IMG/VR virus record: IMGVR_UViG_3300023223_000157
Coordinates: 1 to 40,393 of that record
Direction: 5' to 3' (one strand)
DNA length: 40,393 nt
Origin: a virus
Shown: positions 20,988 through 27,395 of the stretch, piece by piece
How positions within the stretch are numbered: the first letter of the stretch is position 1
How the letters are laid out: every line of letters starts with the position of its first letter
The notes under the pieces: model-generated
Told to the model about the DNA's origin: nothing
Seen by the model: the letters and a program-made list of their open reading frames with translations, nothing else
Database searches by the model: none
Position numbers and translations under genes: made by a program

Positions 20988-21188
20988 ATGACCCAAACAC
21001 AAGTAACTTGGACAGCCCGAGACCAAGACCGATACGATAAATTGATTAACTTACAGGACTCTGCAACTATCCAACAAGTTGAGGAGCGCAAGGAATTAGC
21101 ACTAATACTCCTAGCACTAGAAGATAAAATCCAACATAATGACCTCAAAACAGACCCCCAAAAAACTAACGCTAGTAGCTGCGTTTGA
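20988..21188 (+). CDS. Hypothetical protein (66 aa).
   Basis: Preceded by the AAAAATAAAACACATG start context. Its 3' end overlaps recT by 50 nt, so its extent is uncertain. Confidence 0.3.
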   Translation: MTQTQVTWTARDQDRYDKLINLQDSATIQQVEERKELALILLALEDKIQHNDLKTDPQKTNASSCV

Positions 21189-21915
21189 TCAAAACAATGT
21201 AAAAAAACGCTTTGAAGACATGCTCGGTAAACGAGCAGCCGGGTTTACAAGCTCCGTACTACAAGCAGTCAACAATAACAAGCTACTCAAGACTGCCAGC
21301 ATTGAAAGTATAATGGGTGCAGCGGCCACAGCGGCCAGTTTAAACCTGCCAATTAACCCCAATCTAGGCTTTGCATATCTGGTTCCATATGGGAGCGAGT
21401 GCCAGTTTCAAATAGGCTGGAAAGGGTTTGTACAATTAGCACTTAGAACTAACCAGTATAAGAACATTAATGTAGTGCTGGTTTACGAAAATCAGTTCAA
21501 ATCTTGGAACGCCTTAACGGAGGAGCTTGACGCAGATTTTCATATCGAGGGCGAAGGTAAGGTAGTAGGTTACGCGGCTTACTTTAGGCTGACATCAGGC
21601 TTTGAAAAGACCGTTTACTGGACTCGAGAGAAGACGGAGGCGCACGCAAAGAAGTATTCCAAATCATACGCCAAAGGCTTCGGAGTTTGGGCAGACGGTG
21701 AGGACGGGTTCAACGCTATGGGATTAAAGACAGTCCTTAAAAACACCATTTCCAAATGGGGTATTATGTCCGTGGATATGGAACACGCTGTGCAGGCCGA
21801 CCAGTCCGTACAACTTACTGAAGGTGAGCACACCTACCCAGATAATGACTATGACGAGCACGAGGTTGTCGAGGAGAAGAAAGCGGCTATGAAGAAAGCT
21901 GTTAAGCTTCCATGA
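21139..21915 (+). CDS. recT: RecT-family single-strand annealing recombinase.
   Basis: Characteristic stretch GAAATAASLNLPINPNLGFAYLVPYG...QFQIGWKGFVQLALRTNQYKNI. Confidence 0.8.
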   Translation: MTSKQTPKKLTLVAAFDQNNVKKRFEDMLGKRAAGFTSSVLQAVNNNKLLKTASIESIMGAAATAASLNLPINPNLGFAYLVPYGSECQFQIGWKGFVQLALRTNQYKNINVVLVYENQFKSWNALTEELDADFHIEGEGKVVGYAAYFRLTSGFEKTVYWTREKTEAHAKKYSKSYAKGFGVWADGEDGFNAMGLKTVLKNTISKWGIMSVDMEHAVQADQSVQLTEGEHTYPDNDYDEHEVVEEKKAAMKKAVKLP

Positions 21916-24014
21916 TCGGCCACGTACACGCCTGTAAGGGCATGACAAAGGACGAATTCGAAGACCATTTTAGCCAGTTCATAATCAACTCATGGTCCTA
22001 TTCTAAAGTAAATTCATTCGCCAGAAACGAGAAGGCGTTTGAAATGAATTACATCTATCGAAATCCGTTTAAGAATTCAGCCTCAAGCGTAGCAGGAAAC
22101 GCATACCATGAAGCTCTCCGTAATTTTTTTACAGCAAAGCAAGAGAGCACTCCCCTACCCGATCTTGTTGAGCTTCAATACGTTGCATTCGAGTACATAG
22201 ACGCAGTAGAACCCAAAGACTGGAAGATCCAGAAGACCACCCCAACCGTGGAGCAGTGTATAGTTAAGTCCACTAAGATCAGTACGGTGATCCTAGAGAA
22301 CTTTATGGCTGAGCTGAGCCTGTACACTGAGAACATGGGCGAGATAATGGGAATCGAGATGAAGTTACGGGAGTTTGTAGCGGTCAACGGCGTGGACGTT
22401 CCCCTACCCTGCCACGCTATTATAGATCTGGTATTCAAGACCTTAGACGGCAAAGTGGTTATCTTAGATCACAAGTCTAAAGCCAGCTTTACAGATGAGA
22501 AAGCCCTGAAATTCACAATGGGTAAGCAAGCCATGACCTACGTACTGGCCTATGAGTCTTACACCGGGATTCAGGTTGACGAGGTATGGTTCGTAGAGAA
22601 CAAAACATCTAAGAACCGGGACGGATCTCCACAGCTTAATTGCTTCAAGGTGGTACTGGATGACAACACTCGGAGACTATACGAAGCCATGCTGTACGAA
22701 CCCCTCAAAAAAATGATCGAGGCCGTATCAGATCCCGACTATACATACATGATTAATGATGCGGACAGTTTTACGGACACCGCAGAAATGTATGAGTTCT
22801 GGACCCGTACAATGATAGCAGAGGTAGAAGATTTCGACATCCCGGAGGACAAAAAGGATATGATCCAGAAGCGGTTAAAGAAGATCCGGGACGTGACTAT
22901 TGCAACGGTTGACCCGAAGACCATTAAGAAGTTCCAAGAGCACGCAGCCGAGTTTATACAGTACGATTTAAGTAATAAAAATATGACCAATCAACAAAAG
23001 ATCCAGCACGTACTCCGTGCATTCTCAATACTCGTTAAGATCCCATACAAGTTTGACGGCTATAGCTCCGATACATTCCTGTTAGAAGTCTCTGCGGGTA
23101 CAAGCATAGCAACCATACACCGGCACCGGTTAGATATAGCCTCTGCCCTATCCGTTCCATCGGTTCGCATAATGAAAAACCTATACGTCCACGAGGGTAA
23201 ATCATACGTGGCCATCGAGGCGGCAAAGACCCGGGAGAAGGATCTCATTTACCACGAGTCGTATCTGGAGGACATGAAGATCCCTATAGGTATAGACAAC
23301 TTCGGTAATACCATTGTATGGGATCTAGATAACCAATCTACGCCCCATGCCTTAGTCTGTGGTGCAACCGGTAGCGGTAAATCCGTATGCGTTGAGTCCG
23401 TAATCAATTACGCCCTACTGGCAGGTGTTAAGGACATTATAATATTCGATCCTAAGCACGAGTTTAGAACCGCTGATTTCGCTACGCATAGATATGTGAA
23501 GATCTACAGTGATATTGAAATTATTGAGGTGGTAATGGCCGAGCTTGTCGAGGACATGAACGACCGGATAAAGAGAAACAGGTCACACAAAACCCTAGTG
23601 ATATTCGATGAGTTCGCTACGGCTTTTGCCAACTCAAAGAAAGGTAAATCATTAGAGATCAGGGAACTGCGAGAGGTTGGAACCTACAAAGATGGTTCAC
23701 CTAAAATGAAGGAACACGTAGTGAGTGTACTAAAATCACTTGAGGAGAATTTAACACTCTTACTACAGTTGGGCCGCTCGTCTGGTTTTAGAGTCATGGC
23801 TGCCACTCAAAGGGCTTCAGCTAAGGTAATAACCGGAGACGCGAAGGTGAATCTTCCGGTACTAATTTGTTTCAGGGTTAATAAGGCAATCGACTCAAAA
23901 GTGGTGCTGGATGAAGACGGAGCAGAGAACCTATCAGGCAAAGGTGACGGCCTCATGAATAGCCCGGAGTACATGGGTCTGGTCCGCTTCCAGTCGTTCT
24001 ACAAGCCTAGCTAA
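21912..24014 (+). CDS. Fusion protein (700 aa): N-terminal PD-(D/E)XK (Cas4/RecB-like) nuclease and C-terminal FtsK/SpoIIIE-type ATPase.
   Basis: Nuclease core ...HAIIDLVF...VVILDHKSK. Walker A ALVCGATGSGKSV, Walker B TLVIFDEFA, followed by ...ATQRAS. ATGA overlap with recT. Confidence 0.65.
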   Translation: MIGHVHACKGMTKDEFEDHFSQFIINSWSYSKVNSFARNEKAFEMNYIYRNPFKNSASSVAGNAYHEALRNFFTAKQESTPLPDLVELQYVAFEYIDAVEPKDWKIQKTTPTVEQCIVKSTKISTVILENFMAELSLYTENMGEIMGIEMKLREFVAVNGVDVPLPCHAIIDLVFKTLDGKVVILDHKSKASFTDEKALKFTMGKQAMTYVLAYESYTGIQVDEVWFVENKTSKNRDGSPQLNCFKVVLDDNTRRLYEAMLYEPLKKMIEAVSDPDYTYMINDADSFTDTAEMYEFWTRTMIAEVEDFDIPEDKKDMIQKRLKKIRDVTIATVDPKTIKKFQEHAAEFIQYDLSNKNMTNQQKIQHVLRAFSILVKIPYKFDGYSSDTFLLEVSAGTSIATIHRHRLDIASALSVPSVRIMKNLYVHEGKSYVAIEAAKTREKDLIYHESYLEDMKIPIGIDNFGNTIVWDLDNQSTPHALVCGATGSGKSVCVESVINYALLAGVKDIIIFDPKHEFRTADFATHRYVKIYSDIEIIEVVMAELVEDMNDRIKRNRSHKTLVIFDEFATAFANSKKGKSLEIRELREVGTYKDGSPKMKEHVVSVLKSLEENLTLLLQLGRSSGFRVMAATQRASAKVITGDAKVNLPVLICFRVNKAIDSKVVLDEDGAENLSGKGDGLMNSPEYMGLVRFQSFYKPS

Positions 24015-24179: not shown

Positions 24180-24533
24180 GTGAAAGATCACAGGATTTAT
24201 TATGGTAGAGAGTCTGGCTTCCAAGAGAGCGCAGCACGTTACTTAGATTCGTTGGGTGTCCTATGGTTCCATTGTCCAAACGGTGGAGCACGTACCATCA
24301 AGGCAGGGGCTAACCTGAAGCGTCAAGGCATGAAAGCAGGTTTCCCGGACATTTGTATACTGGAGCCTAGGGGCAGCCATCACGGGCTTATGATTGAGCT
24401 GAAGGTAGATAAGAACCAACCACTACCCCATCAAATTAAATGGCTTAATTGTCTGAATGCCAGAGGGTATAAGGCTGTATGGACTAATAGCCTAGATCAT
24501 TTTATAGAAATAGTAGACGAGTATCTGAAATAA
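24180..24533 (+). CDS. VRR-NUC domain nuclease (GTG start).
   Basis: GFPDICILEP...GLMIELKV...HQIKWLNCLNARGY matches the VRR-NUC D..ExK..Q layout. Confidence 0.7.
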   Translation: MKDHRIYYGRESGFQESAARYLDSLGVLWFHCPNGGARTIKAGANLKRQGMKAGFPDICILEPRGSHHGLMIELKVDKNQPLPHQIKWLNCLNARGYKAVWTNSLDHFIEIVDEYLK

Positions 24534-24537
24534 ATAT

Positions 24538-24545
24538 TACATTTG
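24538..24545 (+). promoter_or_regulatory. TAnnTTTG box (TACATTTG).
   Basis: Exact match to the Bacteroidota -7 consensus, 5 nt after the VRR-NUC stop. It may be coincidental. Confidence 0.3.
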
Positions 24546-24549
24546 TACC

Positions 24550-24632
24550 GGTAGGAATTTGTGGTGAATTCATCTACCAATGTGTAAACATCCCTCAGCT
24601 CGAATTGGACTCGATGAGGGGTTTTTTATTTT
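24550..24632 (+). ncRNA. Structured unit A: hairpin 24550-24578 plus a terminator hairpin with a T-run at 24592-24632.
   Basis: GGTAG-GAATT / AATTC-(AT)-CTACC hairpin, then CCCTCA..TCGA / TCGA..TGAGGG followed by GTTTTTT. This may simply be the operon terminator. Confidence 0.35.
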
Positions 24633-24666
24633 CCCCCATAGTTAATCCTGTGGGGGTTTTTTATTT
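24633..24666 (+). terminator. Second tandem terminator hairpin.
   Basis: CCCCCAT / GTGGGGG stem, 10-nt loop, then TTTTTT. Confidence 0.6.
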
Positions 24667-24678
24667 AATAGAATGTTC

Positions 24679-24686
24679 TATATTTG
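24679..24686 (+). promoter_or_regulatory. TAnnTTTG box (TATATTTG) driving structured element B.
   Basis: Exact consensus match, 10 nt upstream of the element B closing stem. Confidence 0.45.
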
Positions 24687-24695
24687 TATCCATTC

Positions 24696-24781
24696 CCGGA
24701 TCTGACTGTATGGAATAACGAAAGTGAAAGCCTTCGTACAATTACCAAGTCAGATCTGGTATGAAGTACGGGGGTTTTTTT
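24696..24781 (+). ncRNA. Structured RNA element B (candidate sRNA).
   Basis: 12-bp closing stem CCGGATCTGACT (24696-707) / AGTCAGATCTGG (24748-759). Inner hairpin ACGAA/TTCGT. Tail ends TACGGGGGTTTTTTT. No ORF. Confidence 0.45.
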
Positions 24782-24808
24782 GTTGGATTAAAACCCCTTG
24801 TATATAGT

Positions 24809-24845
24809 GGCCGGGGGAGAGGGGTCTGCCCCGGCTTTATTTTTA
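24809..24845 (+). terminator. Strong GC terminator downstream of element B.
   Basis: GCCGGGG / CCCCGGC stem (24810-16 / 24829-35) followed by TTTATTTTT. Confidence 0.7.
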
Positions 24846-24875
24846 TCCTATTCTAGTTTATTAGAAAAAAAGTAT

Positions 24876-24883
24876 TATATTTG
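24876..24883 (+). promoter_or_regulatory. TAnnTTTG box (TATATTTG) driving element C and probably the replication genes.
   Basis: Exact consensus match, 12 nt upstream of the element C closing stem. TTCTAGTTT lies upstream. Confidence 0.45.
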
Positions 24884-24894
24884 TAGCACGTTTC

Positions 24895-24981
24895 CTTCCT
24901 ACATTACGAAACAAAGACATTAAAAACTAACCTCTGTATGAGGGTTGACGTAGGAAGCAGCCGGATTACAGGGGTTTTTTT
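24895..24981 (+). ncRNA. Structured RNA element C, a paralogue of B; candidate sRNA or 5' leader of the initiator mRNA.
   Basis: 8-bp closing stem CTTCCTAC (24895-902) / GTAGGAAG (24950-957). Inner hairpin CCTC/GAGG. Tail ends TACAGGGGTTTTTTT. Same architecture and length as B but with a different stem sequence. Confidence 0.45.
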
Positions 24982-25075
24982 GTACCCTAAATTTGGTAAA
25001 CCATATTCGAAAAAAAGATTACTTTTATAAGCTGCGGCCGATGCACTTGCGACCGCTAGACCCCAATTCTCTCAA

Positions 25076-26077
25076 GTGCTTGACCAATACCGTAATCCAA
25101 CAATGCAACTAGGTTTCATAACCCTACACCGGCAAATCCAAGATCATTGGATATCCCAAAAACCAGAATATTTCCATGCGTGGTGCCTTATATTAATGAA
25201 TGTAAACCACTCGGATAAGAGCGTATTAATCGGAAACACCACCTATAAAATGAGCCGGGGCGAGTCTTGTAGGTCTATAGATTCGTGGATAAAACTATGG
25301 GGAGGTAAGTGGACTAGACAGAAGGCGAGGGGGTTTTTTAAGCTTTTGGAAAGTGATCAAATGTTAACCATCGAAACAACCAACCAAACAACCATCGTAA
25401 AGGTCTGTAACTATGACAGTTACCAACATCCGCAACCATCAAAAAAACCAACGGAACAACCATCAAATAACCATCAAATAACCACTAACAACAATGTAAA
25501 CAATGATAATAAGAAAGTAAAAAAGAAAGAGAGTAAAGAAAAAAGCTCTCTCTCTCGTGAAGTTGAAAAAGGATCTTTCCATCCGCCGGGTACGATAAGC
25601 AAAAACAAAATGATCCTGCCACAGGATGAACCCGAACCGCCACCGGTAGGAAAGTGGAACCCAACCCATACCGGGTACGTGGTCATCGAGGACAGGGAGG
25701 ACATGCACCCACCGCCAAACAACAAAAGATTTTTACAATCGTGTTTCTATGCCTATGACTCTGTGATGGCTCTGCTACCCAAAACATTCAAACCTAGCGA
25801 TAGGGGCAAAGCGGAATGGTTCAACGCTATCGATCAGCTCCTACACGTTCTGAAGTATGGAGACAATCATTTCACCACCGAGCAAATAGTTTTGGCTGTA
25901 CACTTAGCCCGTGATAGCAAAGGGTACTGGAAGAAAAGAATTAAAACCGTGATCGACTTAACCGATGAGATGAAAGGCATGTTGAACATAATCCACATAC
26001 TTGACGAGTTGAAAGATGACCCGAAGCTAGACAAAAACAAAGCGGTAATGATGAAAGTAAAACCATACCCACAGTAA
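25076..26077 (+). CDS. Replication initiator / helicase-loader-like protein (GTG at 25076, or ATG at 25103).
   Basis: The N-terminal winged-helix-like segment (GFITLHRQIQDHW...YKMSRGESCRSIDSWIKLWGGKWTRQKARGFFKLLE) resembles phage O/DnaD-type initiators. It has a low-complexity Pro/Asn/Lys linker and lies directly upstream of dnaB. Confidence 0.5.
   Translation: MLDQYRNPTMQLGFITLHRQIQDHWISQKPEYFHAWCLILMNVNHSDKSVLIGNTTYKMSRGESCRSIDSWIKLWGGKWTRQKARGFFKLLESDQMLTIETTNQTTIVKVCNYDSYQHPQPSKKPTEQPSNNHQITTNNNVNNDNKKVKKKESKEKSSLSREVEKGSFHPPGTISKNKMILPQDEPEPPPVGKWNPTHTGYVVIEDREDMHPPPNNKRFLQSCFYAYDSVMALLPKTFKPSDRGKAEWFNAIDQLLHVLKYGDNHFTTEQIVLAVHLARDSKGYWKKRIKTVIDLTDEMKGMLNIIHILDELKDDPKLDKNKAVMMKVKPYPQ
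25366..25486 (+). repeat. In-gene iteron clusters (AACCATC family, 11-12-bp phasing) inside the initiator gene.
   Basis: AACCATC at 25366, AACCAAC at 25378, AACCATC at 25390. Then AACCATC 25434, AACCAAC 25446, AACCATC 25458, AACCATC 25469 and AACCACT 25480. Confidence 0.55.
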
Positions 26078-26090
26078 AAAAATAAGACAC

Positions 26091-27395
26091 ATGGACAAAC
26101 AAATAGAAACCGAGCGGGCTTTACTCTCCGCATTAGCAGAAAGGCCAGACGGGTTGGTGCAATATGGAGACTTAATTTGCGAGGAATCATTCGTAAACAT
26201 CGCCAGCAAAGCAGTCTACAACGCCCTCCAGTCTTTACTCGCAAAGGGGGATAAAATAGATCTGGTAACCATTGCAAACGAGGTTCGGGATCTCGAAGCC
26301 CACGAAGTTGTGGAAGTGCTTAACGGCGTGTACCAGACCGGGGCAACAAAGCAGTATTGTTTAATTCTGCTAGAGGCTAGGATTGCCAGAGGCCAGCGCA
26401 AACTCGCTGTGGAAATTATCAAGAGGGTAGAGGCCAACGCAGATGCGTTGGACACAAACCAGTTTCTAGTCGACGAGGTGTACGACCTAGCCAACATCGA
26501 GAACATCGCACAGGAACCAACTACCTCAGAAATAGTGCAAGAGCTAAACGACAAAATGGAGAGCGCAAAAAACAAGCAGCTCACCGGTGTAGGTATCGGT
26601 TTGGTCGAGGTCGACCGGATCTTCGGAGGTTACCAAGATGGGGATTTAATCATACTGGCAGCTCGCCCAGCTATGGGTAAAACAGCCCTAGCACTTAGGC
26701 AAGCTCTACACGCTGCAATGGATGGAAAGCACGTGCCTTTCTTCTCTCTGGAAATGTCAGCTGTACAGTTAATGATGCGGCTAGTTTCAATTCATTCAGG
26801 TATTCCACTGGAGAACCTAAAGAAGAACGACCTAACGGATGAGCAGTGCCACCAGTACAACGAATCTACGGCCGCTATAATTGCCAGCGGGATAAAGATA
26901 ATAGACAACTGTTTTACCCTCTCAAGTATTACGCTAAAGGCTAGGAAGCTTGCAGCAAAAGGGGAACTGGATATGATCGTTATCGACTACCTCCAGCTCA
27001 TCCACGGTAAAAAAGGAGCTGTCCGAGAACAAGAAATTTCACACATAAGCCGAACTATTAAGCAAACCGGTATGGAGCTTAAGGTGCCGGTGGTTGCATT
27101 GTCTCAGCTCAGCCGAGCAGTAGAGTCCAGAACAGACAGGCGACCGATCCTGTCAGACCTTAGGGAGTCTGGAGCGATTGAGCAGGACGCTGATATAGTT
27201 CAATTCCTGTACAGACCAGAGTACTACGGGCTAACCCAAAACGAGGATGGCCAAAGCACAGAGGGGCTAGCCTACAACATTGTAGCTAAGCACCGTAACG
27301 GTAGCACCGGGGACATACCTCTACGGTTCATCGCAGAGCAAACCCGATTCGAGGACTACATAGTACAGCCATTCTCCCCAGCGAACTTTAATTAA
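26091..27395 (+). CDS. dnaB: Replicative DNA helicase, DnaB family.
   Basis: GDLIILAARPAMGKTALAL (Walker A), MIVIDYLQL (Walker B), and SQLSRAVESRTDRRPILSDLRESGAIEQDAD. Confidence 0.9.
   Translation: MDKQIETERALLSALAERPDGLVQYGDLICEESFVNIASKAVYNALQSLLAKGDKIDLVTIANEVRDLEAHEVVEVLNGVYQTGATKQYCLILLEARIARGQRKLAVEIIKRVEANADALDTNQFLVDEVYDLANIENIAQEPTTSEIVQELNDKMESAKNKQLTGVGIGLVEVDRIFGGYQDGDLIILAARPAMGKTALALRQALHAAMDGKHVPFFSLEMSAVQLMMRLVSIHSGIPLENLKKNDLTDEQCHQYNESTAAIIASGIKIIDNCFTLSSITLKARKLAAKGELDMIVIDYLQLIHGKKGAVREQEISHISRTIKQTGMELKVPVVALSQLSRAVESRTDRRPILSDLRESGAIEQDADIVQFLYRPEYYGLTQNEDGQSTEGLAYNIVAKHRNGSTGDIPLRFIAEQTRFEDYIVQPFSPANFN

Follow-up and report, generated by a model that had tools for sequence, protein, structure and literature searches.

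The window analysed here is a 40,393-nt stretch of viral DNA (positions 1 to 40,393 of the IMG/VR record IMGVR_UViG_3300023223_000157), and the question it raises is what function resides in a non-coding gap of about 570 bp that separates a VRR-NUC gene (24180-24533) from the ATG (25103) of a DnaD-like helicase loader gene, all the genes around the gap being on the + strand. An initial annotation, made from the sequence and its open reading frames (ORFs), had placed in this gap two paralogous structured RNAs, here named B and C, each behind its own Bacteroidota-type promoter box. This proposal was borne out, as a covariance model built without any sequence from the window recovered both elements, and it is close to certain that B and C are two copies of a ~95-nt folded RNA family that was formerly uncatalogued. 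The family is new; it is a leader RNA that contains a terminator and, unusually, a loop-loop pseudoknot formed within one molecule. As for its role, we favour a cis-acting attenuator leader gating the replication genes, a reading to which we assign a probability of roughly one half.

Identification of the RNA family

A scan of IMG/VR for the tail shared by B and C returned 15 matches, among which the loci L057 and L066 showed the same interleaved layout behind a TATATTTG box, and a terminator-arm pattern then added about 18 loci. Since the first members had been found via their terminator arms, two further sets were gathered as a control for bias. In the set based on loader homology, the element was present upstream and on the same strand in 51 of the 80 loci found via homology to the loader protein of a relative; the set based on the unpaired linker and internal-loop motifs contained at least 53 members among the 78 matches listed. 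Altogether, the family comprises at least 88 distinct elements from viral and metagenome contigs.

Two covariance models were built. R1 included the nested helices only, the loop-loop helix (a:a', described below) being omitted so that it could be tested without bias, and R2, which contained no window sequences, was run unfiltered on the whole 40 kb and on both strands. With R2, element C scored 47.5 bits (E = 3.5e-8) and element B 36.2 bits (E = 1.3e-5), the next match in the window reaching 15.1 bits, and plain terminators with the same 3' arm scored at most 28 bits.

The initial annotation had allowed for a hit to a known element, and none was obtained: Rfam 15 gave no match in the window at gathering thresholds, weak terminator-driven matches only, far below threshold, in the region 24400-25200, and none at E <= 1 in four loci with strong members. 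The families Flavo-1, Bacteroides-1, Bacteroidales-1 and Bacteroid-trp, as well as the Rfam riboswitches and ribozymes, gave no score near the gathering threshold, and none of the Bacteroidetes motifs of Weinberg et al. 2010, which have Rfam accessions, scored. ARAGORN detected 0 tRNA or tmRNA genes in the window. Neither the gap region nor a strong member matched GenBank phages by blastn, and tblastn against GenBank phages with the loader of a relative gave distant matches only, all with less than 60% identity, so that the family could not be assigned to a cultured host. The window's own loader and DnaB had relatives of at most 49% identity, and none of these relatives carries the element. 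A strict pattern scan of 185,579 species-representative cellular genomes yielded no member and one chance match. The family is probably carried by phages infecting Bacteroidota, a host phylum deduced from the type of the -7 box, the lack of a Shine-Dalgarno sequence before the ATGs and a Bacteroidota-labelled loader homologue.

Literature searches returned no description of the element, the supplementary tables of PMC10690425 lying outside those searches. This study (Fremin, Bhatt and Kyrpides 2023) draws on the same data source, IMG/VR, and lists 10,006 unnamed candidate RNAs, with 879 candidates located at most 25 nt upstream of genes and 1241 with Rho-independent terminators (PMC10690425). 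Our family fits both the upstream and the terminator classes, and may be listed among those candidates; the main text, as distinct from the supplementary tables, contains no mention of helicase, DnaD or words beginning with Bacteroid or Flavobacter.

Fold and covariation

From 5' to 3', the members consist of the TAnnTTTG box, about 5-8 nt, b (5 nt), a (8 nt), about 6 nt (AYYAUA), b' and an A-rich linker (AAAGGAAUUAUU), followed by t (about 10 nt), UGAA, c (4-5 nt), 2 nt, a' (8 nt), c', GGAU, t' and a run of six or seven U (U6-7). These segments form two hairpins, the 5' hairpin b:b' and then an intrinsic terminator made of t:t', a 4 x 4 internal loop (UGAA/GGAU) and c:c', and the two are connected by a loop-loop pseudoknot in which 8 nt of the first apical loop are complementary to 8 nt of the terminator apical loop (a:a'). 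The unpaired consensus is ACAYYAUA in loop 1, AAAGGAAUUAUU in the linker and UGAA/GGAU in the internal loop.

Support for all four helices came from two alignments. In A4, based on R1, 93.9% of the cells were paired, compared with 72.7% in shuffles and at most 50% when the partners were slid, and double compensatory changes were present in 7/8 pairs of a:a', 5/5 of b:b' and all of c:c'. In A7, an independent alignment of members found via the unpaired motifs, 97.3% of the cells were paired (68.4% in shuffles), with double changes in 25 of the 27 pairs overall and in 9/10 of t:t'. The Watson-Crick run between the two loops was exactly 8 nt within one molecule in 44 of 50 sequences (minimum 6), against a mean of 4.3 between different molecules. 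The terminator hairpin was also recovered by RNAalifold on an unfitted MAFFT alignment, and the unpaired segments acAnnATA, aAAGGaAtTaTT, atGAA and gGAtt stayed conserved in the 27 distinct members found only via loader homology. Conserved U.G wobbles indicate that the structure is an RNA on the + strand and not a DNA cruciform. No nucleotide intervenes at the junctions from b to a and from a' to c', and the spacers keep their lengths of 6 nt and 2 nt, which, together with the fixed 8-bp length of the loop-loop helix, argues for one defined three-dimensional fold rather than competing structures.

This fold differs from the one drawn in the initial annotation, where a closing stem enclosed a small inner hairpin and was followed by a single-stranded tail. 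The closing-stem pairings do exist, with 8 bp in C and 12 bp in B (24696-24707 with 24748-24759; 11 Watson-Crick pairs plus one G.U). The supposed tail, TAC(G/A)GGGG, pairs with the segment thought to be enclosed and is the 3' arm t' of the terminator stem (9-10 bp), and thus the closing stem corresponds to a:a', interleaved with the terminator. The helices that had been overlooked are t:t' and the 5-bp b:b' and c:c', which flank the 5' and the 3' arm, respectively. The paired segments covary as claimed; the proof comes from about 88 relatives and not from the comparison of two sequences, and the 8-bp stem of C taken alone is within chance expectation, its support coming from the family. The ACGAAA motif shared by B and C proved coincidental rather than homologous, as it is part of b' in C and lies in the linker in B.

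Elements B and C in the window

The two elements, with their promoter boxes and paired segments, are located as follows.

24679..24686, + strand: TATATTTG promoter box of element B, with box and spacing as in 84/88 family members
24689..24781, + strand: element B, a divergent member
24692-24696 (b) and 24712-24716 (b'), + strand: B helix b:b', ATTCC/GGAAT, 5 bp, with 2 nt between b and a
24699-24707 (a, extendable to 24696-24707) and 24748-24756 (a', extendable to 24759), + strand: B loop-loop helix a:a'
24717-24729, + strand: B linker
24743-24747 (c) and 24757-24761 (c'), + strand: B helix c:c', TACCA/TGGTA
24730-24739 (t) and 24766-24775 (t'), + strand: B terminator stem, 10 bp (3 G.U), with the U-run at 24775-24781 (U7)
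24876..24883, + strand: TATATTTG promoter box of element C
24885..24981, + strand: element C, a typical member
24890-24894 (b) and 24908-24912 (b'), + strand: C helix b:b', GTTTC/GAAAC, 5 bp
24895-24902 (a) and 24950-24957 (a'), + strand: C loop-loop helix a:a', 8 bp
24913-24929, + strand: C linker
24943-24947 (c) and 24958-24962 (c'), + strand: C helix c:c', GGTTG/CAGCC
24939-24942 (UGAG) and 24963-24966 (GGAU), + strand: C internal loop
24930-24938 (t) and 24967-24975 (t'), + strand: C terminator stem, 9-10 bp, with the U-run at 24975-24981 (U7)

Both elements fit the family architecture residue by residue. The conserved unpaired nucleotides are mostly present in C (ACAUUAC, AAAGACAUU and UGAG/GGAU), whereas in B they are largely missing, with CUGUAU, AACGAAAGU and AAU/UGAA instead; B lacks the consensus linker and internal loop, and retains the four helices and the promoter spacing. 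Its a:a' helix has 9 bp, and growth to the 12-bp stem would cost b and c'.

A stretch just 3' of the U-run of B, TTGTTGGATTA (24780-24790), is perfectly complementary to TAATCCAACAA (25093-25103), whose last base is the A of the loader ATG. As a candidate antisense to the loader start, this 11-nt match was rejected: its duplex energy (-13.9 kcal/mol) was no better than background and unexceptional compared with other windows, so that the complementarity is probably due to chance.

Genomic context in the relatives

An exact TAnnTTTG box was found at a fixed distance in 84 of the 88 distinct elements, and outside the window practically all members had an ATG 15-24 nt past the U-run, the apparent exceptions having an ATG at the same distance on direct reading. 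With this ATG begins a module devoted to DNA replication or nucleotide metabolism, which includes small ORFs with DnaD-like 'MSGWIKLHR' loaders, DUF6291 proteins and P-loop helicases, as well as a NUMOD4 protein with a BT4734-like primase; further genes which, judging by eye from their translations, we take to be ThyA- and MazG-like were also observed. The link to replication suggested by the initial annotation is thus supported by a strict synteny with the replication module. One copy only was present per locus in the loci examined outside the window.

The upstream genes were variable. Some loci have, like the window, what we take by eye to be a VRR-NUC gene, and a DnaA_C-like helix-turn-helix (HTH) gene was detected in 33 of 49 loci; considered as a universal protein partner, the latter was discarded, being limited to those loci and absent from the window. 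It encodes a protein of ~135 aa (L066:429-839 and equivalents) that could be a regulator or an origin-binding protein, and in most relatives the gene ends 13-16 nt before the promoter box.

The 15-24 nt spacing of the relatives is seen in neither of the window elements: the loader ATG is 122 nt away from C, and B has no gene behind it, being followed by a terminator.

A putative attenuator leader and its alternatives

Since the ATG of the relatives comes 15-24 nt after the U-run, there is no room for a second promoter and the replication genes would be reachable only by read-through, from which we infer an attenuator leader and, with it, transcription, termination, regulation and an effector. 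Each copy would be transcribed from its host-type TAnnTTTG promoter, beginning at the 5' hairpin. The loop-loop pairing would pre-organise the otherwise floppy 26-28-nt top of the terminator, t:t' would close in time and RNA polymerase would stop. With 4-5 bp and a 10-nt loop, c:c' would be marginally stable alone and would be clamped by the 8-bp loop-loop helix, which leads to the prediction that a:a' promotes termination. An effector, possibly a host factor, a metabolite or an early protein of the phage, would read the conserved unpaired nucleotides, its likely recognition surface, and tip the balance between termination and read-through, and this balance would fix the timing and level of replication-gene expression. 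Given that no phage protein is a universal neighbour, a host factor or a metabolite is somewhat more likely than a phage protein. In the window, C would act as leader to the loader/DnaB operon, its spacer being unusually long, while B, an insulated orphan copy with a strong terminator and no gene downstream of it, probably accumulates as a free ~90-nt RNA that perhaps titrates the same effector. The initial annotation had likewise proposed C as a leader and B as a free RNA, in agreement with this layout.

Several observations weigh against an attenuator leader. B keeps all four helices though insulated and without a downstream gene, which a purely cis role does not explain; moreover, it lacks the consensus internal loop and linker and scored only ~8 bits above the best plain terminator with R2. 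The 122-nt spacer between C and the loader ATG holds a fourth promoter-like box, so that the loader may not depend on read-through in the phage of the window. A frequent neighbour, the DnaA_C-like HTH gene, is neither universal nor present in the window, and no conserved alternative (anti-terminator) pairing was found in the family alignments. An anti-terminator pairing of the linker with t (AAGG:CCTT) was considered and dropped, as it did not covary with changes in t. A leader peptide was also rejected, since the AUG in the internal loop was not conserved and the frames it opened had only 2-17 codons.

A more specific version, in which the family would be a phage orphan riboswitch class and the two hairpins, loop-loop helix, A-rich linker and UGAA/GGAU loop would form a terminator-embedded aptamer, is put forward as a tentative and rather doubtful proposal. 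A leader position, a terminator and conserved junction nucleotides are present, and alternative structures excluding one another were not found. The ligand sensed would be a metabolite or alarmone of the host, such as a nucleotide, phosphoribosyl pyrophosphate (PRPP) or (p)ppGpp, and this would tie the replication and nucleotide-metabolism genes to host physiology, with B as a decoy or a second sensor that has diverged.

A challenge to the attenuator leader comes from B itself, a full unit of promoter, RNA and terminator that precedes no gene. Another strong terminator lies 30 nt downstream of B, which keeps b:b', a:a', c:c' and t:t' despite a sequence very unlike that of C. This suggests that the terminated ~90-nt RNA might itself be the product, a stable small RNA acting in trans, for instance by binding or sequestering a protein of the host or of the phage or by taking part in replication initiation, read-through being exploited leakage. 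The distance of 122 nt from C to the loader ATG, with a possible promoter box in between, fits this possibility, as do the many conserved unpaired nucleotides and the combination of a 5' hairpin, a strong terminator end and a compact fold that is typical of stable small RNAs. However, a free RNA gene has no need to lie 15-24 nt before a start codon heading the same module, as the members outside the window do, and elsewhere there is one copy per locus only; no target or partner was identified, and the complementarity between the 3' flank of B and the loader start was no better than background. We therefore regard a trans-acting product as possible, if clearly the less probable course. A role in defence or directed at the host, also raised in the initial annotation, found no support.

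The constant position at the head of the replication module, whatever initiator type follows, could also reflect origin-associated transcripts, that is, short RNAs made by the host polymerase that prime the leading strand or activate a nearby origin by transcription, for which ColE1 RNA II, the T7 phi1.1A/B promoters and the T4 R-loop origins are precedents; phage c2 of lactococci reportedly has a non-coding early transcript, a further precedent known from the title of a 2004 J Bacteriol paper listed in PMC7150918. The G-run, then U-run, then AT-rich stretch downstream, the two tandem promoter units of the window, the iteron-like repeats ~400 nt downstream inside the loader gene and the DnaA_C-like DNA-binding protein often encoded immediately upstream would agree with such transcripts. 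A primer or R-loop, however, has no obvious need of an elaborate, covarying, self-folding pseudoknot, an AT-rich stretch of only 15-24 nt with a start codon right behind it is consistent with a translation initiation region, and no GC-skew switch was seen at the site in a coarse profile, all of which makes this explanation improbable. That the gap is merely an ordinary promoter/terminator stack between two operons with chance inverted repeats is scarcely credible: unit A, at the upstream end of the gap, and the GC-rich hairpin between B and C are indeed plain terminators, the TAnnTTTG box is not enriched window-wide and the 8-bp stem of C could arise by chance, but four helices covary over 88 distinct relatives with double changes in 25/27 pairs, the loop-loop complementarity is molecule-specific, and the window-free model singles out just B and C on the two strands of the 40 kb.

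Comparison with known systems

The closest analogue in kind is the HMP-PP (thiS motif) riboswitch, whose aptamer is embedded in an intrinsic terminator with its upper part in a pseudoknot (PMC6478431). In both cases the sensing structure and the terminator would form one compact unit directly before the regulated gene, and the intrinsic terminator in the 5' leader has unusually conserved features. There is no homology in sequence or structure and no Rfam match, however, and the element described here differs by its additional 5' hairpin and its 8-bp loop-loop helix, is phage-borne and tied to replication genes, and gave no alternative ON-state pairing.

In phage lambda, the replication genes sit behind a promoter-proximal terminator gate, N/nutR-tR1 ahead of O and P, and a second gate, for the late genes, is formed by pR'-tR' with its 6S RNA and Q. 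The likeness lies in a terminator placed between a host-recognised promoter and a gene block, with a short terminated transcript as the default. Unlike our elements, the lambda gates need the N or Q proteins and nut or qut sites, whereas no antiterminator protein was identified here; a covarying pseudoknot takes the place of the boxB hairpin, the host phylum differs and there is no homology.

The immunity of satellite phage P4 relies on the CI RNA and on pairing of seqA, seqB and seqC in the leader of the replication (alpha) operon. It resembles our elements as a replication-operon leader with complementary segments, in which RNA-RNA pairing governs premature termination and leader RNA accumulates. 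In P4, however, the pairing takes place in trans after processing of the leader and gives lysogenic immunity, whereas the complementary loops described here belong to one 95-nt RNA and are spaced in a way that suggests a single fold, and no homology was found. Countertranscript or kissing-loop control of plasmids, exemplified by ColE1 RNA I/II and by attenuation in pT181 and pIP501, shares the loop-loop kissing helices, and there kissing and attenuation control how replication initiators are expressed or function. Those systems need an antisense RNA from the opposite strand, whereas the kissing described here is intramolecular, again without homology. An antisense promoter was considered and rejected, as a minus-strand TAnnTTTG within the element or the next 60 nt was present in only 12/88 elements and its position was not conserved.

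To our knowledge, gene regulation in Bacteroidota phages is almost unexplored. The family is a widespread RNA with strong covariation (at least 88 distinct elements); it occupies a single, fixed control point, where the DNA-replication module begins, and is suitable for inclusion in Rfam. Should there be an effector, the element would give access to the way in which these phages time or throttle their replication, and with a small molecule as effector it would represent a new phage-borne riboswitch class. The layout yields a simple testable prediction, namely that the a:a' loop-loop helix affects termination, and the window is unusual in having two copies, one of them uncoupled from any gene, which offers a natural test of cis versus trans action.

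Other features of the gap and of the neighbouring genes

The remaining features of the region are listed below.

24538..24545, + strand: TACATTTG box of unit A, directly after the VRR-NUC stop codon and outside the RNA family
24592..24662, + strand: two tandem plain intrinsic terminators (stem 24592-24621 plus T6; stem 24633-24656 plus T6)
24810..24845, + strand: GC-rich terminator between B and C (hairpin 24810-24835 plus a T-rich run)
24988..24995, + strand: fourth TAnnTTTG box (TAAATTTG), 7 nt after the U-run of C
25103..27395, + strand: replication operon downstream (DnaD-like helicase loader 25103-26077; DnaB helicase 26091-27395)

The initial annotation was accurate as to the content of the gap. 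No credible ORF is present, only ORFs of 30-41 aa, mostly with TTG starts and overlapping hairpins. Of the four TAnnTTTG boxes, those at 24538, 24679 and 24876 had been reported and the one at 24988 overlooked. Over the whole window and both strands this motif is at chance level (30 observed, 31.2 expected); nonetheless, its clustering in the gap is non-random, given that four + strand boxes fall inside 460 bp where ~0.18 would be expected. The sequence GGGGTTTTTT is present at all four positions where G plus T runs had been noted; it occurs five times in the window, against 0.11 expected, always on the + strand and within 24618-25339. The fifth run, at 25330-25339, is inside the loader ORF, with no obvious hairpin 5' of it. 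At least three terminator hairpins had been announced, and the three plain terminators of the gap are located at 24592-24627, 24633-24662 (z = -4.4) and 24810-24845.

The tandem terminators most likely end the RecT / exonuclease / VRR-NUC operon, as had been suggested for unit A; as a third copy of the element, unit A was rejected, its score with R2 being 15.1 bits, and it is unrelated to the RNA family. The strong GC-rich terminator at 24810..24845 insulates B from C. The TAAATTTG box either gives the loader gene a promoter of its own or occurs by chance. Its TTG also starts a 39-aa ORF (24993-25112), whose end overlaps the loader ATG; in the relatives a small ORF separates the element from the loader, and the 39-aa ORF may be what is left of it after decay. 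In the public gene call, the loader (P0001, 293 aa) begins at ~25196, 31 codons downstream of the ATG at 25103, the latter being the more likely start because relatives align from residues 1-4 of the longer form.

Three ~31-nt direct repeats rich in AACCATC/AACCAAC, iteron-like in appearance, lie at 25366-25476 inside the DnaD-like loader ORF, and a similar CAACCAAC-rich stretch is present in the loader gene of a relative (L066, ~1441-1500). The proximity to a replication origin that the initial annotation assumed found no support, and no evidence puts an origin in the gap; as the iteron-like repeats are within the loader ORF instead, the origin may lie inside the organiser gene, an arrangement known from lambda O and SPP1 gene 38.

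Upstream of the gap, a 700-aa protein (21912-24014) that adjoins RecT (21139-21915) consists of a PD-(D/E)XK nuclease domain fused to an FtsK/HerA-type ATPase, an unusual fusion for a recombination module.

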